Source of the DNA: Terriglobales bacterium
Lineage (GTDB): Bacteria; Acidobacteriota; Terriglobia; Terriglobales; Acidobacteriaceae
Direction: 5' to 3'
DNA: 24,000 bases
Assembly: GCA_035606605.1 (NCBI GenBank)
Contig: DATNEX010000152.1
Coordinates: 1 to 24,000, forward strand
Every line of letters starts with the position of its first letter. The stretch's first letter is position 1. The position numbers and the translations under genes are program-made. Below are positions 1,017 through 17,826 of the stretch, one piece after another. The notes under the pieces are model-generated. The model ran no database searches. It saw only the letters and a list, made by a program, of their open reading frames with translations, and had not been told where the DNA came from.

Positions 1017-3551
1017 CTACTTAAGGCCGAGATTCAGTTGTTCGCTTAGGTAGCTCAACAGCGTAGCCGAATCATCAATGGCGAGTAATTGTTTACGAAA
1101 GTCATCCGTCATGAGCTTGCGAGCAAGCACGGAGAAAACCTGCATGTGATTGCCACCGTTCTGCGTCGCTCGCGCGGCCATCCCGATCACCATGCGTACG
1201 CCCAGAGCATCGACCGCTCCCCAGTCAATGGGCTGCGTGAACTTGAGCACGATAATTGAGCTCGCATTTATGGCATCCGTTTTGCAGTGCGGCGTAGCAA
1301 AGCCAAAACCGAGACCGGTCGAGTAGACCAATTCCCTTGACCATAATGCCTCTTCCAATTTTTCCGGATCCGATGTTCTTCCAGCGTTGCGCAGGAGATC
1401 GATGAATTCCTGCATCGCCTCTTCTTTGTTATTACTGTCGCTGTCTAAAATCATTAGTTCTTCACTCAAAAGTGGATGCGAAGAACACGTTTGCTCGGCG
1501 GACGCGAGCAGATGATTGATATCTGCGTCACTCGACAAAAGCATTTCATCGACCAGCGACCGGCAAGCGGAGGCAGAGTATGTTCGGACGATGCTTTTGA
1601 TTTTTGGGATGTTTACAACGGGCAAACTGATTTCATCGAGACCTAAGCCAAGAAACAGGGGCAAATACTTGGCGTCTGACGCCATGTCGCCGCAGATCCC
1701 AACCCATTTATCTGCTGCCCCGACTTCATCGATAATGCGCTTTAGCAAACGGATGAAGCTGGGACTCGACTGATTAGAAAGTTTGCTAACGTTGGGATTC
1801 CCACGATCCGCAGCAAAAAAGTATTGAGCCAGATCATTGGTGCCAACGCTGAAGAAATCTACCTCGTTACGAAGCTGATAGAGACTGAATGCCGCTGCGG
1901 GTACTTCGAGCATGATGCCGATGGGAATGTCTTCTCGGAAGACAGTATTCTGAGATCGGAGGTCCTCTTTTGCAGCCTTCAGTTGCTGTTTGAAAGCGAG
2001 GACCTCTTCCAGACAGGAGACCATGGGAATCAGTATGTGAACATCGCCAAACACCGAGGCACGAAGAATTGCCCGAAGCTGAACCTGCAAGAGATCCCGC
2101 TGCGTAGCATAGAGCCGTACCCCTCGCAATCCGAGAAATGGATTTTCCTCAGGGGCAAGCCCGAGATAGGGTACAGCCTTGTCGCCGCCCAGATCGAAAG
2201 TGCGAATGATGACAGGCTTTCCGCTCGCGGCTTTGAGTACTTGCTCGTAAACGGCGACTTGCTCCTTTTCAGAAGGCGGCCGTGCTTCCATGAAGAGCAT
2301 TTCTGTTCGAAAAAGGCCGATCCCATCCGCTCCATTTCCAAATGCCAAAACGGCTTCATCCTGTGCCGACGCATTCGCTCCCACGTCCAGATTGATTCCG
2401 TCCCTTGTTATGGCGGGCGAACTCGCACTGGCTTTCAAGATTTCTGTTTGACGCGACAATGTTCTTACTTCACGCGCGTAAAACCTCTCCACCGCTGGTA
2501 GCAATTCCGGAAACAACAATCCGCGATTTGCATCCACCACAATTGCCTGCCCCGTCGAAAGCAGGGACTTTGTGTGCTTAACTCCGACAACAGCCGGAAC
2601 GCCATACGAGCGGGCCAGAATAAGCGCATGGGAATTAGCGCCGGCATACTCCAGCACGATGCCTTTGAGAAAGTGGCGATCAAGCCTAAGGAACTGCCGC
2701 GGCGCGAGAGTGTCAGCCACGACAACTGAGGGCTCATGAAGAGTGATTACGGTCTTAGGCAGGTCTTTACCACAGATCTCGCTTAGGAGGTGTGCTGCAA
2801 TCTCCTCAACGTCTGCTGCACGTTCCCGAATGTACTCACTATCAGAATGACGCAACAGATCTGCAAAAAACTTTCCAGTTTCGAGTACTGCCTGAGCGGC
2901 AGATTTGTCGTTGTTTACTTGATGCGCAAGCCTTTCTGCGAAAAGAACGTCGTCCAAGAGGGCAAGCTCTGCCTGAAGTACGTCTCTGGTTTGCGAGCCG
3001 GAGCGGGTCAATTCCTCACGAATGTTGTCACGTACGTTCCTAAGTGCGCGCTTGAGGCGTTGCAGTTCTTCCTTTGGATCAGTTGCATCGTGTGAAATCG
3101 CGGCATGCGAGAGTGAAACCGAGTTAAGAAACACCACCTTACCACGTCCCACTCCGGGACTTACGGCAGAACCCGAGTAACATGCAACGCCCACCTGTTG
3201 CAGAATCCGCGGAAGAGAAAACGGCTTAGTGGACGGGCTCTTCGCAAGTGGCACATCACACGTCGGCAGAACGTGCTTAGTAAAGTCGCGAAGAGAAGTA
3301 TAGCCAAACTGTTCGTCTGCCCCATTTATCTGAACAAGGCAATTGTCGCCTTGGCGGATATCCAACGAGATGATCGAAAGAACGCTCTTGGCGTTCCCTT
3401 CGTTGTTGTTTCGCAAATTCGTGAGTGTGCATTCCGAGACAAAGCTGTTCGCGAGCGTAGCGAAATGGCTTGCTGGACGCGCATGCATGCCCGCCAACAA
3501 AGGACAAGTGAACACAAACTGCAGCGACGTGCTGCTGAGGTTTGGCGACAT
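1017..3551 (-). CDS. PTS multiphosphoryl transfer protein, a fused HPr - enzyme I - EIIA(Fru/Mtl type 2). The domain order is FryA/PtsA-like.
   Basis: 844-aa ORF. aa 1 to ~95 are HPr-like (CPLLAGMHARPAS; His23 codon at 3483-3485). aa ~125-690 are enzyme I (GANSHALILARSYGVPAVVG with His308 codon at 2628-2630; GLFRTEMLFM; IIRTFDLGGDK; LGLRGVRL; IMLEVPAAA; FFSVGTNDLAQY; ICGDMASD). aa ~696-844 are EIIA type 2 (GLGFGFATPHCKT; His755 codon at 1287-1289). The ATG at 3549-3551 lies 1 nt after the IIB stop. Confidence 0.9.
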   Translation of the reverse strand: MSPNLSSTSLQFVFTCPLLAGMHARPASHFATLANSFVSECTLTNLRNNNEGNAKSVLSIISLDIRQGDNCLVQINGADEQFGYTSLRDFTKHVLPTCDVPLAKSPSTKPFSLPRILQQVGVACYSGSAVSPGVGRGKVVFLNSVSLSHAAISHDATDPKEELQRLKRALRNVRDNIREELTRSGSQTRDVLQAELALLDDVLFAERLAHQVNNDKSAAQAVLETGKFFADLLRHSDSEYIRERAADVEEIAAHLLSEICGKDLPKTVITLHEPSVVVADTLAPRQFLRLDRHFLKGIVLEYAGANSHALILARSYGVPAVVGVKHTKSLLSTGQAIVVDANRGLLFPELLPAVERFYAREVRTLSRQTEILKASASSPAITRDGINLDVGANASAQDEAVLAFGNGADGIGLFRTEMLFMEARPPSEKEQVAVYEQVLKAASGKPVIIRTFDLGGDKAVPYLGLAPEENPFLGLRGVRLYATQRDLLQVQLRAILRASVFGDVHILIPMVSCLEEVLAFKQQLKAAKEDLRSQNTVFREDIPIGIMLEVPAAAFSLYQLRNEVDFFSVGTNDLAQYFFAADRGNPNVSKLSNQSSPSFIRLLKRIIDEVGAADKWVGICGDMASDAKYLPLFLGLGLDEISLPVVNIPKIKSIVRTYSASACRSLVDEMLLSSDADINHLLASAEQTCSSHPLLSEELMILDSDSNNKEEAMQEFIDLLRNAGRTSDPEKLEEALWSRELVYSTGLGFGFATPHCKTDAINASSIIVLKFTQPIDWGAVDALGVRMVIGMAARATQNGGNHMQVFSVLARKLMTDDFRKQLLAIDDSATLLSYLSEQLNLGLK

Positions 3552-3552
3552 G

Positions 3553-3852
3553 TCAGTGTTGAATCTTTCTGAAGATGCCTTCCGGGTTTTTTAATGCCTC
3601 CTGCAGAGGCACCTGAATAATGTTGACGCCATTGAATCGCTCGCGCCCCTCGATTTCGATATCAATGGCGAAAATTGCGACTTTGGCCTGGCGAATGTCC
3701 GTGTCTGTGAGCTTGTTTTCGATACCCATTGCTCCCTGAGTCTCGACCTTGATCTCGTGACCGAAATTCTTCGCCACGGCTTCCAACCTTGCAGCAGCCA
3801 TGTAAGTGTGGGCGATGCCTGTTGGGCAGGCAGTCACGGCGATGATCTTCAT
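3553..3852 (-). CDS. PTS fructose-family IIB component (stand-alone, 99 aa).
   Basis: MKIIAVTACPTGIAHTYMAAARLEAVAKNFGHEIKVETQG.. matches the Fru-type IIB signature with the phospho-Cys in ACPTGIAHT. The ATG (3850-3852) overlaps the IIC stop (3849-3851) as ATGA. The longer ORF start at 3912 would lie inside IIC and adds no IIB-like sequence. Confidence 0.85.
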   Translation of the reverse strand: MKIIAVTACPTGIAHTYMAAARLEAVAKNFGHEIKVETQGAMGIENKLTDTDIRQAKVAIFAIDIEIEGRERFNGVNIIQVPLQEALKNPEGIFRKIQH

Positions 3853-4937
3853 ACGGTCTCCTGGAGCTCCTGGCGGACTCCAATATTTCTGGATTTTAGG
3901 AGGTTGATGCACACGGCAGTCAGGACTGTTCCGGTGAGTATCGCGAGCAAATACGGAATGCGGTGATTGACCCCGAATAAAACAATCGGACCTCCATGAG
4001 GAGCGGGATCCCCGACTTGGTAAAGCATGGCGATGACCGCGGCAACCATGGAACCGAACATAATGCTGGGAATAACGCGCACCGGATCCGATGCTGCAAA
4101 TGGTATTGCGCCCTCAGTGATTCCAATGAGTCCCATCGCGATCGCGGCGGACCCTGCTTCGCGTTCCTCTGTACTCCAGAGTTTCTTCCTAATCAATGTA
4201 GCCAGCCCCATACCTAGCGGAGGAGTGCAGATGGCCGCCGCACAAGCGCCCATTATTTGATAATTTCCCTGACTGATCATGGCGGCGCCAAAGAAAAATG
4301 CGGTCTTGTTGACCGGACCACCCATATCAAAGGCGATCATTGCGCCGAGTGTCAGCGCCAGTAGAATGCTGTTGCCCGTACTCATGTGCAGTAAGAAAGC
4401 CGTCGCGTGCTGCATCACCGAAGCGATGGGCGGTCCAAGAACTTTGATCATGAGCACACCGACCAGGGCTCCCGAAACAATGGGAATGACGAGAATGGGC
4501 ATGATTGGGCGAACATATTTTGAAACAGGCACTTTCTTTAGACCTTCGACCAGATAACCGGCGAGAAGCCCCATTAATATTGCCCCCAGAAATCCCGCCA
4601 CTATGTCTTTCGTTCCTGGGACAGGGATTGGTACGCCCGATAAATAACCGCCGATGAAGCCGGGAACAAGTCCCGGTTTGCCAGCAATCGAATACGAGAT
4701 GTAGCCGGCAAGAACGGGCAGCATAAGAGTGAACGCAGCTTTGCCGATATCAAGCATTAATTTCAGAGTTGGCGCCTGGGAGAAATCGGGACCCTTTGAG
4801 GTCATTGCCGAGGGATCGGTAAGTTGAAGCAACCCAATCGCAAGCGCGATCAATATTCCGCCGCATGCGATGAATGGGATCGCAAATGAAACCCCTGTTA
4901 GCAAATGCTGACGCACGTTATATAGCGGCTTTGTCAT
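3849..4937 (-). CDS. PTS fructose-family IIC membrane component.
   Basis: 362-aa polytopic hydrophobic protein. The N-terminus (LLTGVSFAIPFIACGGILIALA) and later motifs (FDMGGPVNKTAFFFG, GITEGAIPFA) are typical of FruA-type IIC domains. ATG at 4935-4937. Confidence 0.9.
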   Translation of the reverse strand: MTKPLYNVRQHLLTGVSFAIPFIACGGILIALAIGLLQLTDPSAMTSKGPDFSQAPTLKLMLDIGKAAFTLMLPVLAGYISYSIAGKPGLVPGFIGGYLSGVPIPVPGTKDIVAGFLGAILMGLLAGYLVEGLKKVPVSKYVRPIMPILVIPIVSGALVGVLMIKVLGPPIASVMQHATAFLLHMSTGNSILLALTLGAMIAFDMGGPVNKTAFFFGAAMISQGNYQIMGACAAAICTPPLGMGLATLIRKKLWSTEEREAGSAAIAMGLIGITEGAIPFAASDPVRVIPSIMFGSMVAAVIAMLYQVGDPAPHGGPIVLFGVNHRIPYLLAILTGTVLTAVCINLLKSRNIGVRQELQETV

Positions 4938-5020
4938 TCGTTATGTGGCGATGACATATCGGGCATGCCTGCAATTCTCTACATTGTCCTCATGGCCGGT
5001 TTCTTAGTATGTGTGAATAG

Positions 5021-5040
5021 TCCTATTGTCGAAAATAGGA
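5021..5040. promoter_or_regulatory. Perfect inverted repeat TCCTATT-N6-AATAGGA between the AraC stop and the PTS operon; candidate operator or weak terminator hairpin.
   Basis: Read directly: 5021-5027 tcctatt, 5028-5033 gtcgaa, 5034-5040 aatagga. It lies 84-103 nt upstream of the IIC ATG on the minus strand. No T-tract follows on either strand. Confidence 0.3.
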
Positions 5041-5061
5041 TAAATAACACGTTTGTTGCAT

Positions 5062-6039
5062 TTAGGTAACCTTTTCGTGCGAAAGAGCGGCCGCGTTCTC
5101 GCCGTCCGTAGCGATGATCGAGAGTCGAAGCGTGCTAATTTTTGTCTTTGGCTTGTTTGCCAAACTGCGCGTGCGATATTCGGTCGGCGTCACCTTGGAG
5201 ATTTTCTTAAAAACACGACAGAAGTATGCCGTATCAGTGTAGCAACAATTGGCGGCGATCTCCTTCAATGTCATGCTGTAGTTCTGAAGCATGAACTTTG
5301 CCCGGTTCACGCGGACGAGGTTGAGATAATCGTTGAAACGCATCAACCCTTCTTTGCGGAAAAGTCGAGATACATGATTAGGGGCCAGGCCGAAATGTTC
5401 CGCCACACTCTCCCGCGTCATTGGGTTCTGTAAATTCTCTTGTAGATAGAGACAGATGGATTCGTAAGTACGGATAGCCTTGCGCAGCTTTCGATGCTGC
5501 GGCGCCTTGAGCAGTCGTAAACAAGCATGTAGCAAGGACTCGGTCAACAACCGGGCCAAAGGGCCTTCCGAGCGATCGGCCGCCAAAACCATAAGTGCGG
5601 CGAGAATGCCGTGCGTGGGAACGTCGTAGCCGCCATGCACGCTGGCCTTCAGACCCGCAGTGGGCATTTGCGTGCCCCCTTTGTGCCGAACCAAACTGAC
5701 TCCAATCTGTTTCACACCAAAAAGAATAGTGAGTACATCAATTCTTTCCACCCAGTCCGGCTTGTTCCAGGCGTGATCCGGAACAAAAACTGCGTGCCCG
5801 CGTACAGGCCGAATCGTTTTTGTACTGCCATTTTGCGAGATTTCCATCGTGTGACAACCCGAAAGCGGAATAGAGAGACGCGGGAAGTTGGTGACGTACG
5901 CCAGCGCCGGAGGCACAGTCGTTCCGTCGCTGAAATGTACGTGACGAACGCGGCTCTCGCGCAGAAAAGCTTCGAGCTCGTGGATCACAATCTGGTTTGC
6001 GGAGAGTCGTGCACCTCGCGAAGCAACAGTTCGTTTCAC
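5062..6039 (-). CDS. AraC/XylS-family transcriptional regulator.
   Basis: The C-terminal double-HTH region is typical of the family (..MTRESVAEHFGLAPNHVSRLFRKEG..MTLKEIAANCCYTDTAYFCRVFKKISKVTPTEYR). It follows an N-terminal ~180-aa putative ligand-binding domain. The start is uncertain: GTG at 6037-6039, or an in-frame GTG about 17 codons downstream. Confidence 0.85.
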   Translation of the reverse strand: MKRTVASRGARLSANQIVIHELEAFLRESRVRHVHFSDGTTVPPALAYVTNFPRLSIPLSGCHTMEISQNGSTKTIRPVRGHAVFVPDHAWNKPDWVERIDVLTILFGVKQIGVSLVRHKGGTQMPTAGLKASVHGGYDVPTHGILAALMVLAADRSEGPLARLLTESLLHACLRLLKAPQHRKLRKAIRTYESICLYLQENLQNPMTRESVAEHFGLAPNHVSRLFRKEGLMRFNDYLNLVRVNRAKFMLQNYSMTLKEIAANCCYTDTAYFCRVFKKISKVTPTEYRTRSLANKPKTKISTLRLSIIATDGENAAALSHEKVT

Positions 6040-6040
6040 A

Positions 6041-6073
6041 GAACGTTACATTAGTACAAACAATGTTTACTGT
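6041..6073 (+). promoter_or_regulatory. Copy 1 of a conserved 33-nt upstream element (GAACGTTACATTAGTACAAACAATGTTTACTGT).
   Basis: Ungapped 29/33 identity with 17579-17611 on the same strand. It sits in the divergent AraC/TBDR intergenic region, directly abutting the predicted AraC start. Confidence 0.5.
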
Positions 6074-6089
6074 CCACTAGCAGTTTTCG

Positions 6090-6118
6090 TTGACTGTCGC
6101 ATCGATTTCCCACATACT
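6090..6118 (+). promoter_or_regulatory. Candidate sigma70-like promoter for the TBDR gene (TTGACT-N17-CATACT).
   Basis: TTGACT at 6090-6095, a 17-nt spacer, then CATACT at 6113-6118, about 105 nt upstream of the TBDR ATG. This is pattern matching only; promoter consensus in this phylum is poorly defined. Confidence 0.3.
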
Positions 6119-6223
6119 CCGTGACCGGCGCTATATATCGGTGCGCTCTGCAAGGTCACTGGCCATCGTGAAAGCGCGTTTTTCGTGGCTGAACTCGCTG
6201 TTCAAGTTGTCAAGGAGCTGGAG

Positions 6224-9200
6224 ATGAAGATCCTCTCAGTGTCGACACCTTCTGTATCTGCTTGCAATTTCACACTCCGCATCTGTGGCAAGACCCTGGC
6301 GCTCTGTGTGCTGTTGGCACTCACGCGACCACAATTGCATGCCCAAGCCTTCAGTGGCATCAACGGGACGGTGACTGATACGAGCGGCGCCGCTGTTGCC
6401 GGCGCGAGCATCACCGCGACGAACGTTGACACCAACGTCTCGAAAAAAGCAGTGGCCACGACCGCCGGCACTTATTACATTACCGACCTGATCCCGGGGA
6501 CCTACACAGTGCGGGTGCAACAGTCGGGCTTCAGGGCCTTTGTCCAGAACAACGTGAACGTTGTAGGCGGAGCTACGTCCACGGCGAATGCGGTGCTGCA
6601 GGCAGGTAGTGTTGAAGAACAGGTTGAGGTCATTGCTTCAGCGGTCGCGCTGCAGACCGAGCAACCGGAGATCGGCACCGAGATCAACCAGACCCTCCTG
6701 ATGGATTTGCCGCAGGAGATCGCCGGCTCAAATCGCCAGATTGACGCCTTTATCTTCCTCGCCCCCGGCGTCACGGGTAGCGGATTCAGTCATCGGATCA
6801 ACGGCGGCGTCGACGAGCAGACAGAGGTGATGTTCAATGGCGTCCCCGAGTCTTGGTCAGAAACGTCGGGTTTCACGTTCTGGAACCAGCCGCCGTACGA
6901 CTCGATCAAAGACGTCAATGTCTTGACGGGTACGTTTTCTGCACAGTACGGCCTGGGGCAAGGGGTTGAGCAGTACACAGCGAGGTCGGGAACCAACCAG
7001 ATTCATGGAGATGCATTCGGGTTTTACCGCGATGCGTTCTTTGACGCGCCGGGAGCGACCGCCGATGTTTTCGGAAACAATAGAGGCCAGAAGGGCGAAC
7101 CCAATACCGACCATGAAACTAACTGGGGAGGGTCCGTAGGGGGTCCGGTTTGGATCCCCAAGCTGTATGACGGACGAAACAAGGCCTTCTGGTTCGTCAG
7201 CTATGACCGTTACCGGCTGGCTCAAGGACAGCAACCGATCACCATGCCAACGGCTGCGGAGGTTCAGGGGGATTTCAGCGGCTTAGTCAATCCCGTTACC
7301 GGTGTACCAATACCGATTTTCGTTCCGTTGGCATGGGGCACCACTCCATCACTCATACCGACTGGTTGTAACCTTGGAGCGCTGGGCTATACACCAGGAC
7401 AGCAGTTTCCTGGCAACAAGATCGATCCGAGTTGTTTCAGCACCGTTTCACAGGGGTTGCTCCAGTATGTGCCAGCTCCGACTACATCATCGGTTGAAGT
7501 CAAAAACTTTATCCCCAGTTTTACTCCTCTCAATTTGGAGACAGACTTCAGCGTCAACGTAGACTACAACCTCACCGATAAACAGTCTTTACATGGCTGG
7601 TACTGGCGACAATACTTCCCTGTTCCGTCCGGGACAGAGTTCACTTCGGCTCCCATCGATACCTCATTCGTCAATACCGTTCTGGGAAGAGGCGTTGATA
7701 TTACGTATGCCAACACCCTTTCTTCGCACTTCGTGGTGACCGGGGGGTTCCTATACGTATTTCAGAACAACGACTTTAGTCCGACTCACTTCTATCCTGG
7801 CACTTTCCCAGGTGTCGCCCCGTTCAGCTCGTCCGCTAATATTTTGCCGGGCATTAACTTCACAGGCGGCCCTTGGGAACCGGACAACTGGGGCGCACGA
7901 AATGGCGGCTTGCCAACACAAAATCACAAGACCGGATATTCGATTATGGGGAACGCCCTGTGGACGCACGGGCGCCACACGGTCAATTTTGGAGTGGATA
8001 TTCGAAAATCGAAGCAGCTCGATTTCGAATGCGATGGATGCGCAGGGAGTCTGACCTTCAACTCCACTACAACGGCCGATCCAAACGAGCCGACCCCTGG
8101 CACGAACACCGGCAACGGATTCGCTAGCTTCCTACTCGGAAACGCGGACTCAGCCAGCCGAGCGGGCGCGGCTCCGACGATTCTAACCAATACGTACCTA
8201 GCTCCTTATTTCCAGGACGATACGCAGATTACTTCGAAGCTCAAGGTCAACTGGGGCGTTCGGTGGGATTTGGCGTTTCCCTTCAGCAACGACTTCCATT
8301 CCAATCAACTCACCTTCTTCAACCCGAACGTTCCGAATGCCGGTGCGATCAATCCAGCTACCGGGCAGCCGCTCTTGGGCGGTATGGCGCAGCTGGGCAA
8401 AGGATGCCCAGTATGCATCGGCTGGAGCCAAATGGACATGATGTGGAATCACTTTAGCCCGCGAGTCGGCTTTACCTACCAGCTAAATAACAAGACTGTT
8501 GTGCTCGGGGGAGCGTCGTGGTATTGGCTGGACACTGGCGGCTTCGAATACGGCGTCAACAAGGTAGCTGTGAACTACGGAAACAATTTGAATGGTTCTG
8601 AGACCTTCGACAGCGGGAGCAAGGGATCAATTGGTAGCTACAGCATCCCAAGCTATGGCTTGTGGGACAGCGGGGTGAGTGGAGCAGCGGGACCGCTTCC
8701 TGCACCGGCGCAGCTTCCTCTAACCACGGATTTCTTCAACACCCAGTCTCCACAAGCGATGACCAAGCACGTTCGGCAAGCCTACGACGAACAATTTGTC
8801 CTGGGCATCCAGCGGGAATTACCGTGGAACATGTTCCTCTCAGTGTCCGGAGTGCATACCCACGATGTACACCTACCGTCCTTACTGGCGGGCAGTGGGA
8901 GGCTGAATTATCTCAATTATGGATTCGTGCAGAGCGTATGCCCTCCTGGGCTGGCAAACTCAACTGATTGTGTCCTAGGTCAATCCTGGACCTCTCCGGC
9001 GGCGCAGACGCTCATGGCGTCAAACGCCTCGCAGTATAATCTTGCTCAATATACGTACCCCGGAAGTGATCCGTCTTGCCCGGGGATGACCCTCTGGGTT
9101 CCATATATCAATTTCTGCGATGACTATGGGTCTGGGGGTTTGACCGCTCGAGCATTTCTGAAATATCCGCAGTTCCGGGGCATCACGAACAACTTCGATA

Positions 9201-10012
9201 CGAATGGTGCCGACAAGTACAACGCGCTGCAGATGAGTTTACGCAAGCGCACCGGAAGCGGGCTGACGTTCCTCGTGTCCTATACACTTTCGAGATACTT
9301 CACGAATACCGATAGCGGATTCTCGACTTTCAATTTCAGAGGCCTGGATCCGGGAAACCCCAGGAGGGAGTGGTCGGTTGGCAATGACGATCGCACGCAT
9401 GTGATCTCGATCGCGGGAGTTTATGAACTGCCTTTCGGCAGGGGCAAGAAGTTATTGAACAATGCCAATCGGATAGTGAACAACGTAGTGGGTGGGTGGT
9501 CGTTTAGCTTCGTCAATTATTACGAAAGTGGAACGCCGGTACAGTTTACGTCCTGCAACGGCGTGCTCAATTGCACTCCGCTCCTCTATACGGCAGGGTA
9601 CAATCGTCCCAACATCCAGAACACAAATTTCAATGTGGACTGGCATAACTACTATAACAACCTCAATGGGGGAACCACGCCAATCTTTAATACTTCCATC
9701 TTCAGTTCCCCTGGCGCTTGGACCATAGGCAATGCAGGATTTCTCTACAACAACTTCCGAAATCCTTGGTACAACGAGGAAGATTTTTCTCTGGGAAAGA
9801 AGTTTTTCGTCAACGAACGCGTAAATTTCGAGGTGAAGATGGAATACTTCAACGCGCTAAACCGATTTAATATCGGTAACTGTATGGATACGAATGTCGG
9901 CGATGCCAATTTCGGTCTCAATAGCAGCCCCGGCGTCCCTTGTCAGGCTGCAAATAATAACGGTGCGATCATACCGAGACAAGGCCAGGTGAAGTTGCAG
10001 GTTAATTTTTAG
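6224..10012 (+). CDS. TonB-dependent outer-membrane receptor with an N-terminal carboxypeptidase-regulatory-like domain.
   Basis: AAGGAG at 6212-6217 precedes the ATG at 6224. The signal peptide is MKIL..LALTRPQLHAQA. The CarboxypepD_reg-like fold reads GINGTVTDTSGAAVAGASITATNVDTN..GTYYITDLIPGTYTVRVQQSGF. A plug region (DVNVLTGTFSAQYG) and a long beta-rich barrel follow, ending in the OMP-typical terminal aromatic residue (..KLQVNF). The ORF-track start at 6185 (GTG) adds 13 residues before the signal peptide. Confidence 0.9.
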   Translation: MKILSVSTPSVSACNFTLRICGKTLALCVLLALTRPQLHAQAFSGINGTVTDTSGAAVAGASITATNVDTNVSKKAVATTAGTYYITDLIPGTYTVRVQQSGFRAFVQNNVNVVGGATSTANAVLQAGSVEEQVEVIASAVALQTEQPEIGTEINQTLLMDLPQEIAGSNRQIDAFIFLAPGVTGSGFSHRINGGVDEQTEVMFNGVPESWSETSGFTFWNQPPYDSIKDVNVLTGTFSAQYGLGQGVEQYTARSGTNQIHGDAFGFYRDAFFDAPGATADVFGNNRGQKGEPNTDHETNWGGSVGGPVWIPKLYDGRNKAFWFVSYDRYRLAQGQQPITMPTAAEVQGDFSGLVNPVTGVPIPIFVPLAWGTTPSLIPTGCNLGALGYTPGQQFPGNKIDPSCFSTVSQGLLQYVPAPTTSSVEVKNFIPSFTPLNLETDFSVNVDYNLTDKQSLHGWYWRQYFPVPSGTEFTSAPIDTSFVNTVLGRGVDITYANTLSSHFVVTGGFLYVFQNNDFSPTHFYPGTFPGVAPFSSSANILPGINFTGGPWEPDNWGARNGGLPTQNHKTGYSIMGNALWTHGRHTVNFGVDIRKSKQLDFECDGCAGSLTFNSTTTADPNEPTPGTNTGNGFASFLLGNADSASRAGAAPTILTNTYLAPYFQDDTQITSKLKVNWGVRWDLAFPFSNDFHSNQLTFFNPNVPNAGAINPATGQPLLGGMAQLGKGCPVCIGWSQMDMMWNHFSPRVGFTYQLNNKTVVLGGASWYWLDTGGFEYGVNKVAVNYGNNLNGSETFDSGSKGSIGSYSIPSYGLWDSGVSGAAGPLPAPAQLPLTTDFFNTQSPQAMTKHVRQAYDEQFVLGIQRELPWNMFLSVSGVHTHDVHLPSLLAGSGRLNYLNYGFVQSVCPPGLANSTDCVLGQSWTSPAAQTLMASNASQYNLAQYTYPGSDPSCPGMTLWVPYINFCDDYGSGGLTARAFLKYPQFRGITNNFDTNGADKYNALQMSLRKRTGSGLTFLVSYTLSRYFTNTDSGFSTFNFRGLDPGNPRREWSVGNDDRTHVISIAGVYELPFGRGKKLLNNANRIVNNVVGGWSFSFVNYYESGTPVQFTSCNGVLNCTPLLYTAGYNRPNIQNTNFNVDWHNYYNNLNGGTTPIFNTSIFSSPGAWTIGNAGFLYNNFRNPWYNEEDFSLGKKFFVNERVNFEVKMEYFNALNRFNIGNCMDTNVGDANFGLNSSPGVPCQAANNNGAIIPRQGQVKLQVNF

Positions 10013-11248: not shown

Positions 11249-13008
11249 CGTTTCCTTTTCGCCAATTCGATCGCCGCTCCGTGTTGCTAGTCGTTGCGTT
11301 TATAGCGGCTTACATCGCAAGCGACGCCAACAGCGCGTTCGGTGGGCAATCCGCCTCGGTGCCGCTTCCGCTCCCAAAGTTGGTCCCCGGAAAATTCAGA
11401 GATATAACTTCCGAACTGAGCATCGACTTCCGCTATCTCTCTTCTCATACCACGAAAAAATACCTCATCGAAACTATGGGAACGGGAGCTGCGCTCTTCG
11501 ATTTTGACAATGACGGGCGCTTGGATATTTTTTTGGTAAACGGCGCCCCGTTGACCGACCCCACGCCGAAAACAGCTATCCCGCAAAAGACGGGCCCTCA
11601 ATACTGGAATCGTTTGTATCACCAGAAGCGAGATGGCAGGTTCGAAGATGTGACCGAAAAAGCGGGACTCCAGGGCGTCGGATACGGAATGGGCGTTGTC
11701 GTTGGAGATTATGACAACGATGGGTTCGAAGATCTGTACGTGACGGCTTATGGAGGCAATCGGCTTTATCACAATAATGGCAACGGCACATTCACGGACG
11801 TCACTGAAAAGACGGGCGTAGCTGGCGAAGGATGGTCAACGAGCGCCGCCTGGGTGGACCTCGACAATGATGGCCTGCTGGACTTAGTCGTTCTCCGTTA
11901 TCTCGACTGGGATTTCAGCGACGTGTGGTGTGGTACGCATAAAGAAGGATATCGTTCATACTGCACGCCCGACATTTTCAAGCCTATCGCGCCACTGGTT
12001 TATCACAATGAGGGGAACGGCCGCTTCACGGAAGTCTCTCAGAAGATCGGCATAGCGAAACCTGGGCGGGGATTAGGAATTGCTCTCGCAGATTACGACC
12101 GCGATGGGCATATCGACGTCTTTATCGCCAACGATTCCATGTTTGAATTCCTCTACCACAAGAAGGTCGATGGCACGTTCGAAGAGGTCGCTTTGCCTGC
12201 CGGCGTTGCCGTCGACAGTGACGGCAACACCTATGCTGGGATGGGTGTCGATTTCGCTGACTATTACAACGATGGCCTTCCGGATCTGCTCGTCACGGAC
12301 TTGGGAAACCAAAGATATGCGCTGTACAAGAATAATGGAGACGGAAGCTTTACCTACGCAAGCTTCTCGTCCGGAATTGGAACCATCACGCAGCGATTCT
12401 CTGGCTGGGGCGTTCGTTTCATGGACTACGACAACGACGGCTGGAAGGATGTTATGGTCGCGCAGGGACATGATTTGGACAACGTGGAGCTGACCACGCC
12501 CACTCTGCGTTATCGCGAGCCGATGCTTCTCGCCCGAAATATGGGCAAGGATTTCGCAGATGTTTCTGCGCAATCGAGCAGTGTATTTCAGATTCCCTGG
12601 GTCGGGCGTGGTATGGCCGTCGGAGACATCGATAATGACGGACGGCTGGACGCGCTGGTTACTACGAACGACGGACCGGTTCATGTCCTGCACAACGAGA
12701 CTCAGACTGCGAATCATTGGCTTCTCCTGAAACTTGTGGGGCACAAGAGCAATCGGGACGCGATTGGCGCAGAGGTGAGAGTGAAGACTCAGCATGGGTC
12801 TCAGCTTGGTATCGTCACCACTGCAAGCAGCTATCTCTCGTCCAGCGACAAACGCCTGCACTTCGGCCTGGGCACGGACGAAGTAGTCGAGGAGATGGAG
12901 ATCCGATGGCCAAGTGGCATCATTCAGAAGCTGCAGAATGTGCACAGTGACCGCATAATGCAGATCGATGAACCTGGGCCGAATGAGTCCTCGGCTTCGA
13001 AAAAATGA
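11245..13008 (+). CDS. CRTAC1-family protein: FG-GAP/VCBS repeats plus a C-terminal ASPIC/UnbV domain.
   Basis: Repeated Ca-binding-like loops (FDFDNDGRLDIFLVNG, GDYDNDGFEDLYVT, VDLDNDGLLDLVV, MDYDNDGWKDVMV, GDIDNDGRLDALV) are interspersed with NRLYHNNGNGTFTDVTEKTG-type strands. The C-terminus reads NHWLLLKLVGHKSNRDAIGAEVRV..SYLSSSDKRLHFGLG..IRWPSG. The TTG start at 11245 overlaps the TPR-A stop (TTGA). The N-terminus FDRRSVLLVVAFIAAYIA is signal-like. Confidence 0.9.
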   Translation: MTFPFRQFDRRSVLLVVAFIAAYIASDANSAFGGQSASVPLPLPKLVPGKFRDITSELSIDFRYLSSHTTKKYLIETMGTGAALFDFDNDGRLDIFLVNGAPLTDPTPKTAIPQKTGPQYWNRLYHQKRDGRFEDVTEKAGLQGVGYGMGVVVGDYDNDGFEDLYVTAYGGNRLYHNNGNGTFTDVTEKTGVAGEGWSTSAAWVDLDNDGLLDLVVLRYLDWDFSDVWCGTHKEGYRSYCTPDIFKPIAPLVYHNEGNGRFTEVSQKIGIAKPGRGLGIALADYDRDGHIDVFIANDSMFEFLYHKKVDGTFEEVALPAGVAVDSDGNTYAGMGVDFADYYNDGLPDLLVTDLGNQRYALYKNNGDGSFTYASFSSGIGTITQRFSGWGVRFMDYDNDGWKDVMVAQGHDLDNVELTTPTLRYREPMLLARNMGKDFADVSAQSSSVFQIPWVGRGMAVGDIDNDGRLDALVTTNDGPVHVLHNETQTANHWLLLKLVGHKSNRDAIGAEVRVKTQHGSQLGIVTTASSYLSSSDKRLHFGLGTDEVVEEMEIRWPSGIIQKLQNVHSDRIMQIDEPGPNESSASKK

Positions 13009-13015
13009 TGCGCCG

Positions 13016-14962
<1,947 letters not shown>

Positions 14963-16228: not shown

Positions 16229-17452
16229 TCACCGCTGAGGCGTATCCGGTATTTTGGATTTCTCTTTCATTACCTCTTGGGCGTGTTTTGCTTCCGCTGC
16301 GCGCGCATTTTGTTCCAGCTTCCCAAAAGTAGACATTTCCGCGTTCGCCTCCGCTGTTCTCCCCAGACCGCGGTATGCCTGCGCCAGCATGAAGTGTAAG
16401 CGCGGATCTTCGGGATCAGTTTTGATAGCCATTTGAAGATCTGGCACAGCTTCTTCGTACCGATTCAGGCGAATGAGCGCGGTGGCACGATCCGGCCTGG
16501 CCTCCATCAGGTACGGGCAGGTCTGCAGGGCACGATTGATATCGTCGAGTGCTTCCTCAGGACGCAGGTGTTGTTCGAGCAGAATATTCCCGAGCTTCCA
16601 TTGCGCGTCGCAGTTCCCTGGATCGTTGGTTAGTTCCGCTTGAAACTGCGCTGTCGCATCCGCCCAGTCATCAAGCTGCCAATAGGCATTGCCGAGCTTG
16701 TAGTGGGTGCCAGTCTGATTGGGAGCTATATCAACTGCTTTTTTGTATTCCACCAGCGCCCCATCAAAATTTTTCATGCTGGACATGATGTCGCCGCGAA
16801 TTTGGTGAGACAGCACTGAATTTGGATCAATCGCGTCAACCTTCGCGAGAGCCTCTTCGGAAAGCTGAATATAGACGTTCCCCAACATGTACCAGATTTC
16901 CTGGTCTTTGGGCTCGCGTTTCGCCAACTCCTGCAAGTGCGCCGCCGCGAGGCCGAAGTTTCGAAGCTTGACCAAGTCCTTGGCAAGATAAAGTTCTGCG
17001 TTGTTGTCCTTCGGATTCTTTCGAATTGCTGCTTCCAACGGCTGTCGCGCCTCCGTATATTCGCCCGCCTCGTAATAAGCGATGCCGAGTAGGACGCTTG
17101 CGGAATACATAGTCGGATACACTTTCAAGCCTTGCTTGAGCGTAGCAATTGCTTGGGGGTATTCGTGTTGTTTCAGATAGAGTGCGCCGAGGTTGTTGTA
17201 CGCAGGCCCAAGGCGAGGCGCAACTTCAAGGATCGACTTGTATTTTGAGATTGCACCGGCCATGTCGCCGCTTTGCTCAGCCGCCTTAGCTCCCGCGTAG
17301 AGCTGGACTATACGAGGATCGTTCGCGTCCGGCTCCGCCTGTGGGTAGGCAGCCAACAACGGAAATATCGAAATCGAGCTGGCAAGAGCGCAGCCACAGA
17401 TCACCTTGGCAAAGCGTATCGGATTCGGAGCCGAGAAAAGACACCACCGCAT
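16229..17452 (-). CDS. Secreted tetratricopeptide-repeat protein (TPR-C), not closely related to TPR-A or TPR-B.
   Basis: 407-aa ORF with a hydrophobic N-terminus (..ICGCALASSISIFPLLAAYPQA). It carries many canonical 34-aa TPR units (AYNNLGALYLKQHEYPQAIATLKQGLKVYP, LLGIAYYEAGEYTEARQPLEAAIRKNP, HYKLGNAYWQLDDWADATAQFQAELTNDP, HFMLAQAYRGLGRTAEA). Confidence 0.8.
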   Translation of the reverse strand: MRWCLFSAPNPIRFAKVICGCALASSISIFPLLAAYPQAEPDANDPRIVQLYAGAKAAEQSGDMAGAISKYKSILEVAPRLGPAYNNLGALYLKQHEYPQAIATLKQGLKVYPTMYSASVLLGIAYYEAGEYTEARQPLEAAIRKNPKDNNAELYLAKDLVKLRNFGLAAAHLQELAKREPKDQEIWYMLGNVYIQLSEEALAKVDAIDPNSVLSHQIRGDIMSSMKNFDGALVEYKKAVDIAPNQTGTHYKLGNAYWQLDDWADATAQFQAELTNDPGNCDAQWKLGNILLEQHLRPEEALDDINRALQTCPYLMEARPDRATALIRLNRYEEAVPDLQMAIKTDPEDPRLHFMLAQAYRGLGRTAEANAEMSTFGKLEQNARAAEAKHAQEVMKEKSKIPDTPQR

Positions 17453-17578
17453 GGCTCGTTCGATTCTACTCTGGGTCTACGTATTTCAATCCTGCGACTT
17501 GCACCCGTAATCGCCACGGCGCGTCCGAGCGGGCCCGCAGCAACAGTCTGGATGTGATCAAGGATGCTCAGACCGTGG

Positions 17579-17611
17579 GAACGTGACTTTAGTACAAATA
17601 ATGTTAACTGT
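17579..17611 (+). promoter_or_regulatory. Copy 2 of the conserved 33-nt upstream element (GAACGTGACTTTAGTACAAATAATGTTAACTGT).
   Basis: 29/33 ungapped identity with 6041-6073 on the same strand. It sits in the 374-nt divergent region between TPR-C and GH38. A shared ATACTCC block follows at 17643-17649 (compare 6114-6120). Confidence 0.5.
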
Positions 17612-17826
17612 GTCCTATTTCTTTTCTCGGCCTTTCTGTCCGATACTCCCATATCGAAATGCTTCTGCTTCTGTTCGGCAGCTTTCAACAAGCAAGTCGC
17701 CTAAAGGTTCTCTTTATACAATTCCTAAAGTCATTCAAAATGCGCTGCGTTGGGTCAACGTTCGTTTTGAGTATTGGGGGACTAATGCATATTTCACCCG
17801 CTAGCACAGCCAACTCGGCCAAGTTA

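Follow-up and report, generated by a model that had tools for sequence, protein, structure and literature searches.

Genes and a repeated non-coding element at the locus

The window analysed here, a 24,000-nt stretch of DNA from a Terriglobales bacterium, carries a gene for an AraC-family regulator that is flanked on the same strand by a fructose-family PTS operon and on the other side by the divergent gene of a TonB-dependent receptor (TBDR; Table 1). The two tandem FG-GAP/ASPIC-UnbV genes of the receptor run are paralogues that share 38% identity, and direct-repeat families D1–D7 (window 11500–14400) represent coding repeats of these two genes rather than non-coding elements. Farther along, a gene for a 407-aa TPR protein (TPR-407) and a gene for a GH38 alpha-mannosidase diverge from each other, and the latter is followed on the plus strand by an unknown 263-aa protein and a PadR regulator. 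Within the PTS operon, the listed IIB open reading frame (3553–3912) overlaps that of EIIC by 64 nt; IIB has 99 aa in related contigs, and its true start is probably near position 3852.

Table 1 Coordinates of genes, candidate operators and predicted promoter elements in the window
Feature	Position	Strand	Remarks
Fructose-family PTS operon	1017–4937	−	EIIC 3849–4937; IIB ~3553–3852; HPr-EI-EIIA fusion 1017–3551
PTS promoter, −10-like hexamer CATACT	5006–5011	−	Context CACACATACT; almost invariant across loci
Copy 3 (PTS-type site), diverged homologous candidate operator before the PTS operon	~5030–5075	−	57/75 identity to PTS-type consensus, one gap
AraC-family regulator gene	5062–6039	−	HTH_18 and HTH_AraC (Pfam), residues 213–291
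Copy 1 (primary site), ~45-nt candidate operator toward the TBDR operon	6041–6085	+	Positional orthologue of 88/88 sites 1 nt from the AraC start codon
Putative regulator promoter inside the operator	6048–6076	−	−35 TGGACA (6071–6076), 17-nt spacer, −10 TAATGT (6048–6053); read from sequence
Predicted TBDR promoter	6090–6118	+	TTGACT (6090–6095), 17 nt, CATACT (6113–6118); −10 begins 72 nt after operator start
TBDR gene (CarboxypepD_reg + OMP_b-brl_4)	6224–10012	+	First gene of a TBDR-TPR-ASPIC-ASPIC-TPR run to 16151
407-aa TPR protein	16229–17452	−	Upstream neighbour of copy 2
Copy 2 (distal site), ~45-nt candidate operator toward GH38	17579–17623	+	PWM score 45 bits; orthologues before GH38 in L102/L103 and L104
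Predicted GH38 −10-like hexamer GATACT	17642–17647	+	Begins 63 nt after operator start; no good −35, TTCTTT there
GH38 alpha-mannosidase ORF, ~1500 aa	17659–22182	+	Likely true start ATG 17785 or 17827, then signal-peptide-like stretch

An earlier note on this DNA, prepared by inspecting the nucleotides, described a 33-nt element shared by the regions upstream of the receptor and GH38 genes, and interpreted it as an operator or promoter module of the AraC/XylS type that defines a small regulon. The repeat is borne out by our analysis. Specifically, GAACGTTACATTAGTACAAACAATGTTTACTGT (6041–6073) and GAACGTGACTTTAGTACAAATAATGTTAACTGT (17579–17611) lie on the same strand and are identical at 29 of 33 positions, with mismatches exactly where the earlier note had placed them (element positions 7, 10, 21 and 28). 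Its estimate that such a match is not random also holds, as 100 dinucleotide-preserving shuffles yielded 0 matches. When the four variable positions are replaced by N and as many as three further mismatches are allowed, copies 1 and 2 remain the only matches in the window. Similarity between the two copies extends beyond the element, reaching 48 nt at 77% identity in a repeat search (family D8) and roughly 76 nt at 70% identity by blastn. The size first given requires revision: although the 33-nt match stands, the unit that is conserved measures about 45 nt.

Both copies are intergenic and point toward a plus-strand gene, as had been described. Copy 1 occupies the gap between the regulator and receptor genes, where it adjoins the start of the AraC-family gene (GTG 6037–6039, minus strand), and copy 2 occupies the gap between the TPR-407 and GH38 genes. 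The smaller collinear blocks reported 3′ of both copies are likewise present, and the ATACT they contain is part of a CATACT or GATACT −10-like hexamer (6113–6118 and 17642–17647, respectively) that is kept across orthologous loci. The internal structure proposed for the element, three GT(n)AC units, is only partly retained: the boxes that hold family-wide are GTTAC, GTGCA (GTAC), GTTAA and TCTAC, spaced at approximately 10 nt.

The AraC-family regulator

The regulator carries a double helix-turn-helix region with NCBIfam matches to the DNA-binding domains of AraC, PocR and RhaR/S. Residues 196–295 match PDB profiles of AraC (2k9s), SoxS and MarA, and these matches cover the DNA-binding domain only. 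The N-terminal region of about 190 residues has no family match, and a structure prediction based on a 15-sequence alignment reached a pLDDT of 51, with values below 50 for the N-terminal domain. Because this region lacks a family match and is poorly modelled, any ligand named for the protein is a guess from gene context. The exact protein is present on soil-metagenome contigs, and hundreds of orthologues exist at 71–92% identity, some of them named Acidobacteriaceae or Candidatus Sulfotelmatobacter.

Conservation across orthologous loci

A total of 89 loci was collected around regulator orthologues (those discussed individually carry an L number), and 88 of these include enough upstream sequence to read. 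Phylogenetic footprinting, which the earlier note had proposed as a check, recovers the element in the orthologous intergenic regions of all 88 AraC loci, and also before GH38 in two further lineages. The orientation of the element is constant across the 88 loci, and it always stops 1 nt short of the regulator start codon, which is GTG or, less often, ATG or TTG. Read in the direction of the regulator gene, these primary sites yield a 49-nt family consensus, AAGAAATAGTAGACATTTAACATTAATTGCACTAACGTAACGTTCCGTG, in which most columns are at least 90% conserved among 39 unique primary variants. Copy 1 of the window is a lineage variant of this consensus.

To gauge selection, mean pairwise identity was computed for locus pairs whose regulators are no more than 85% identical in protein. 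The value for the 45-nt site is 84%; in the regulator gene, it is 88% for first and second codon positions and 44% for third ones. Thus, the non-coding site evolves as slowly as the replacement positions of the neighbouring gene and, by this comparison, is under selection. Indeed, a typical AraC-family site would not need almost all of its positions conserved over 45 nt. Overlapping constraints must contribute, whether these come from the regulator’s own promoter, from the context of its start codon or from a second protein.

In the window clade, both copy 1 and copy 2 carry a C where all other lineages have an A (AACTGT/TACTGT/AACCGT versus AAATGT; L102 9833–9881 compared). The regulators of this clade read YTDTAYF, versus YSDPAYF elsewhere, just before the second recognition helix. 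The shared A-to-C and YSDP-to-YTDT changes may reflect co-evolution of site and regulator, or gene conversion, with either reading depending on a single position.

Predicted promoter geometry on both strands

The element is located upstream of −35/−10 pairs predicted by consensus. Counted from the first base of the 33-nt element to the nATACT box, the distance is bimodal, being either 62–63 or 72–74 nt in 65 of 67 unique variants. The 50 unique variants of the shorter class have only TTTCTT or TTTCCA at a weak −35 position, and all 15 variants of the longer class have a TTGAC −35. Copy 1 belongs to the long class and copy 2 to the short class, and their element-to-−10 distances differ by 9 nt. 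A shift of approximately one helical turn, together with a promoter that has its own −35, is expected of an activator site whose function depends on the face of the helix, as with AraC/XylS-type and CRP-type sites. By analogy, the two distance classes appear to match this expectation.

On the opposite strand, the primary site includes a putative promoter for the regulator gene, with the family consensus TAGACA-17-TAAYGT and a weak −10 in which only TAnnnT is kept. In the window, the GTG start codon follows TAATGT by 8 nt, and the same gap between −10 and start is found in nearly all loci. The regulator start is fixed relative to the element, and frame is kept in almost all loci despite 3n indels (offset 1 mod 3). 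Furthermore, a Shine-Dalgarno motif does not fit into the fixed operator sequence that precedes the GTG. Most simply, this arrangement would mean that the regulator mRNA is leaderless or near-leaderless, and that its core promoter is covered by the operator. In the lineage represented by L098, the GTG has been lost and, instead, there is a GGGAGG followed by an ATG 30 nt downstream. The context of the start codon is therefore not the sole constraint on the site.

A comparable arrangement is seen at the 5′ region of the TPR-407 gene (window 17452–17500, minus strand; conserved in L102 9950–10003), which has TTGAAA...TAGAAT, an ATG 10 nt later and no Shine-Dalgarno motif. TPR-407 may be a second near-leaderless gene.

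A diverged site before the PTS operon

When the window is searched with a PWM built from the primary sites, copy 2 is the only non-primary match. At other loci, the same PWM detects a further type of site about 1 kb downstream and on the opposite strand, in the gap between the regulator stop codon and the EIIC gene. These PTS-type sites are found in nearly all loci; copy 3, which the earlier note had overlooked and which overlaps the AraC stop codon (5062–5064), is their positional orthologue in the window. A PTS-type site has the same orientation relative to its downstream gene as the primary site has to the divergent gene. The primary site reads GGAACGTTACGTTAGTGCAATTAATGTTAAATGTCTACTATTTC toward the divergent gene, and the PTS-type site reads AAAATGTTAYnnnAGTRCAAYAAACGTTCCATCTCTCCTGTTTC toward the PTS genes. 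Similarity between the two profiles is 0.56 at a shift of 0 and roughly 0.25 at every other shift. The associated PTS-type promoter is nearly invariant across loci, as far as CACACATACT.

Each site type also resembles itself when displaced. Direct self-similarity, taken as the maximum over shifts of 5–30 nt, peaks at a 20-nt shift for both the primary (0.48) and PTS-type (0.43) profiles. This modest signal is carried mainly by the AAYGTT box, and the half-sites agree little in their second box. A 20-nt direct repeat would provide modest support for two tandem half-sites.

The PTS and TBDR promoters have in common TTCnCACATACTnnGnnACCGGC, which comprises the −10 box and about 12 nt of the initial transcribed region, and they form the inverted pair I21 (window 4995–5017 and 6107–6129). 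At other loci, CACACATACTACG is almost invariant at PTS promoters, and CCATACTTGCCAACCGA is found at most primary promoters.

Rearrangements of the proposed regulon and ancestry of copy 2

All loci that extend far enough have the regulator gene followed by EIIC-IIB-HPr/EI/IIA in this order. What varies is the gene on the divergent side, namely the receptor with TPR and ASPIC genes in the window clade, a receptor–GH38 operon in L018-20, L032, L039 and L042, and GH38 directly in others (L007, L023-25, L041, L059, L062, L078 and L081). In most loci, the partner is an unknown 677-aa protein, which lacks a Pfam or NCBIfam match and is followed by a distant receptor. This protein, the commonest divergent partner, is exemplified by L009 (7677–9710, minus strand). 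Beyond it lie a distant TonB-dependent receptor, an unknown 452-aa protein and a protein of ~1250 aa that carries a Pro-kumamolisin activation domain. Proteolysis of glycoproteins may be among the functions of the regulon.

The combination of a receptor adjacent to the regulator and a GH38 gene with its own copy of the site is shared by the window, L102/L103 and L104 (TPR-407 86% and 81% identical). The module on the GH38 side aligns without gaps from operator to −10 in all three lineages and contains a lineage-specific GTGAC common to them. Copy 2 thus represents an old paralogous site maintained by selection, rather than a recent duplicate of copy 1.

This ancestry bears on the proposal that nothing is conserved but a core promoter and the translation-start context of an AraC-family gene with a leaderless mRNA, with copy 2 a leftover of promoter duplication. 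We consider this proposal improbable, even though the element does contain a −35/−10-like pair with a 17-nt spacer, followed in nearly all loci by a start codon 8 nt beyond the −10. In addition, the −35-like TAGACA is invariant at primary sites and altered in the two distal copies, which lack the regulator gene (GACACA in copy 2, TAGTTG in L095). However, the 17-nt spacer shows the same degree of conservation as the hexamers, and the PTS-type site keeps the boxes and their distance to CATACT even though no gene lies on its back side. Moreover, copy 2 has been kept together with its whole downstream promoter in the three GTGAC lineages, as is characteristic of an old selected site and not of debris.

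Two kinds of remnant were sought behind copy 2 and rejected. A comparison of 17440–17680 with 4900–6230 by blastn returned 76 nt of promoter homology only, rather than a trace of an AraC gene, and a PTS-type PWM scored nothing there that could represent a PTS-type promoter. A shared 9-mer, ACTGTTGCT, is accordingly given no interpretation.

The roles of the two target genes are swapped in the MAG that contains L007, where GH38 adjoins the regulator and the receptor orthologue (60% identical) has the distal copy (L095 902–933). On the MAG contig that also carries L007, L095 860–1300 has a primary-type operator separated by only about 150 nt, without an intervening regulator gene, from a PTS-type promoter. 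This distal PTS-type promoter precedes IIB-ASPIC-TPR genes, and a 99-codon open reading frame (965–1264, beginning MKRIAG...) overlaps it. L095 looks like a duplicated control module that has lost its regulator and EIIC genes and would now drive IIB-ASPIC-TPR. In L017, a close relative of the window with an 88% identical regulator, GH38 follows the PTS operon and has no site that scores with the PWM, which weighs against the operator model set out below. Between the PTS operon and GH38 of this locus (5200–5560) is a perfect hairpin (AGCTACCTGAGC...GCTCAGGTAGCT), and a degenerate element-like stretch, AAACATGTTTTTACTAATGAAACC, is present in the opposite orientation near the GH38 start.

Rarity of the element

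A scan of 185,579 species genomes was performed with the pattern BNNNAANGTNACNNTARTNCANNNAATGTTNA, which matches all 39 primary variants and matches copy 2 in its core, and sites before a canonical start codon were excluded. The scan returned 12 matches besides these start-codon-adjacent copies, and by this measure the element is not the dispersed repeat that the original description had named as a possible refutation. Eight matches are in Acidobacteriota, all inside the same locus, and consist of seven primary sites with a shifted regulator start and one true distal copy (L095). The other four occur in unrelated taxa and lack the flanking architecture. Their number is close to the roughly nine chance matches expected from the information content of the pattern under uniform base composition.

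Operator model and alternatives

The interpretation of the element as part of a shared AraC/XylS-type operator and promoter module with a small regulon is supported by its conservation, its linkage to the regulator gene, its fixed spacing from −10-like boxes, its retention at the receptor and GH38 genes through rearrangements, and its rarity. We consider it probable that the AraC/XylS-family regulator of the locus acts on a ~45-bp operator of which the element forms the core, and that three versions of this operator precede the TBDR, GH38 and PTS genes. The strict linkage of site and gene makes the adjacent AraC-family protein the obvious candidate, and it is most probably the cognate factor. 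This protein most likely switches on the outer-membrane receptor, the alpha-mannosidase and the PTS operon together.

If this model is correct, two regulator subunits with two helix-turn-helix motifs each would occupy two tandem half-sites of ~20 bp, thereby contacting four boxes ~10 bp apart (GTTAC, GTGCA/GTAC, GTTAA and TCTAC). At sites of the GH38 and PTS type (62–63 nt), the promoter-proximal half-site would abut the weak −35, and at sites of the TBDR type (72–74 nt) it would sit farther away by one turn of the helix, upstream of a good TTGAC −35. The bound regulator would then activate the CATACT −10 promoter, presumably on a mannose-containing sugar. On the other strand of the primary copy, the predicted promoter of the regulator gene (TAGACA/TGGACA, 17 nt, TAAYGT) would end 8 nt ahead of the GTG, and a regulator bound at the operator would be expected to repress this gene, resulting in autoregulation. 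A mannose-containing glycan is suggested as the inducer only by the presence of GH38 and by a weak resemblance of this enzyme and of the PTS to the mannosylglycerate system of Escherichia coli.

These roles could be joined in a more elaborate reading, in which the 45 bp would serve at once as operator, as upstream activating site of the divergent promoter and as the full core promoter from which a leaderless regulator mRNA is made, with the regulator toggling RNA polymerase between the two directions. The N-terminal domain might then sense the phosphorylation state of the PTS, and the A-to-C and YSDP-to-YTDT changes would represent co-evolution. As a whole, this reading is speculative and rather unlikely.

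It is also doubtful that a different regulator, such as a global carbon-control protein or a PTS-linked factor, binds the site while the AraC-family protein acts elsewhere. Palindromic pieces of the element (AACGTT and TTAA) could suit a dimeric non-AraC protein, but a global regulator would be expected to have its site at many other loci, and this site is inseparable from the AraC gene, both among the eight Acidobacteriota matches of the genome scan and at 88 of 88 loci.

Other classes of element were considered. An Rfam scan of 4900–6300 gave no match at E ≤ 1, and RNAalifold applied to 60 unique variants returned an open chain on both strands (0.0 kcal/mol, z ~0.2). A cis-regulatory RNA, whether riboswitch or leader, was rejected because the element has neither a consensus structure nor an Rfam family. 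Promoters of the ECF-sigma (GGAAC...CGT) and sigma-54 (GG-N10-GC) types were rejected by eye because the second consensus element is absent. Although the element is a repeated and highly conserved non-coding sequence, and read-through transcription from the AraC gene could extend into its PTS-type copy, it is highly improbable that the element represents a structured RNA (a leader, 3′-UTR element or small RNA) or a mobile, REP/MITE-like repeat, given the open chains and lack of Rfam matches described above and its occurrence exclusively at this locus, in 1–4 copies per genome and free of terminal or flanking inverted repeats.

Relation to known regulatory systems

Control by an AraC-family operator is already well known as a kind of system; full-text literature searches found nothing relevant on the regulon proposed here. 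In the araC–araBAD system of E. coli, AraC is bound at araI1-I2 next to the −35 of pBAD, and the araC promoter is divergent and autoregulated. The present locus resembles that system in having an AraC-type double helix-turn-helix regulator encoded divergently from the operon it presumably controls, a site of ~40 bp with a modest direct-repeat periodicity of ~20 bp that abuts a weak −35, and a putative promoter for the regulator within the control region. Unlike in araC–araBAD, the regulator gene here would have its entire core promoter covered by the operator, which stops 1 nt short of the start codon; the mRNA would then be leaderless. Moreover, no distal looping site is seen at this locus, the N-terminal domain lacks a known family and the sequence motif is unrelated.

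Sites of the XylS/Pm and RhaS/RhaR type consist of tandem or paired half-sites of ~17–20 bp that are located upstream of the −35 or overlap it. The element is similar to these in span, position and helical phasing, including the second distance class one helical turn away, but the symmetry of its putative half-sites is weak.

The mngR–mngAB system of E. coli combines a Fru-family PTS and a GH38 mannosylglycerate hydrolase with the GntR-family regulator MngR. The pairing of a fructose-family PTS with GH38 is shared with the locus described here, and there are weak NCBIfam matches to the MngA and MngB models. Membership in this system was rejected on the basis of NCBIfam scores (80 bits for GH38 against a cut-off of 1138, and 205 for EIIC against 763) and of the regulator, which belongs to the AraC family and not to GntR. 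In contrast to mngR–mngAB, GH38 here is a protein of ~1500 aa with a signal-peptide-like N terminus, and the set also includes a TonB-dependent receptor and TPR/ASPIC proteins.

TonB-dependent receptors are also characteristic of carbohydrate loci in other bacteria, namely the PULs of Bacteroidota, which have AraC-type HTCS regulators, and the CUT loci of Xanthomonas. As in these loci, a TBDR, a glycoside hydrolase and an inner-membrane transporter are brought together, apparently under one sugar-responsive regulator. Unlike them, the present locus has no SusD partner, relies on a PTS for inner-membrane uptake, and has a one-component cytoplasmic AraC-type protein as its regulator.

Implications for Acidobacteriota

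Acidobacteriota are a dominant and mostly uncultured soil phylum in which gene regulation is almost unstudied, and the motif found here is unusually sharp. The analysis provides a sharply defined motif for a probable operator, a candidate for the regulator that acts on it, and a small proposed regulon that ties together a TBDR, a secreted-type GH38 and a fructose-family PTS. The motif could be used to annotate this regulon in metagenomes, and in reporter or inducible-expression tools for these bacteria. The content of the regulon suggests a route for the use of glycans that contain mannose, such as mannans or glycoproteins from fungi or plants. If the 45 bp do combine the roles of operator, regulator promoter and activating site, RNA polymerase would be toggled between the regulator gene and the glycan-uptake genes. 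Furthermore, if the N-terminal domain senses PTS phosphorylation instead of, or in addition to, a sugar, TonB-dependent import across the outer membrane would be coupled to PTS uptake in Acidobacteriota.
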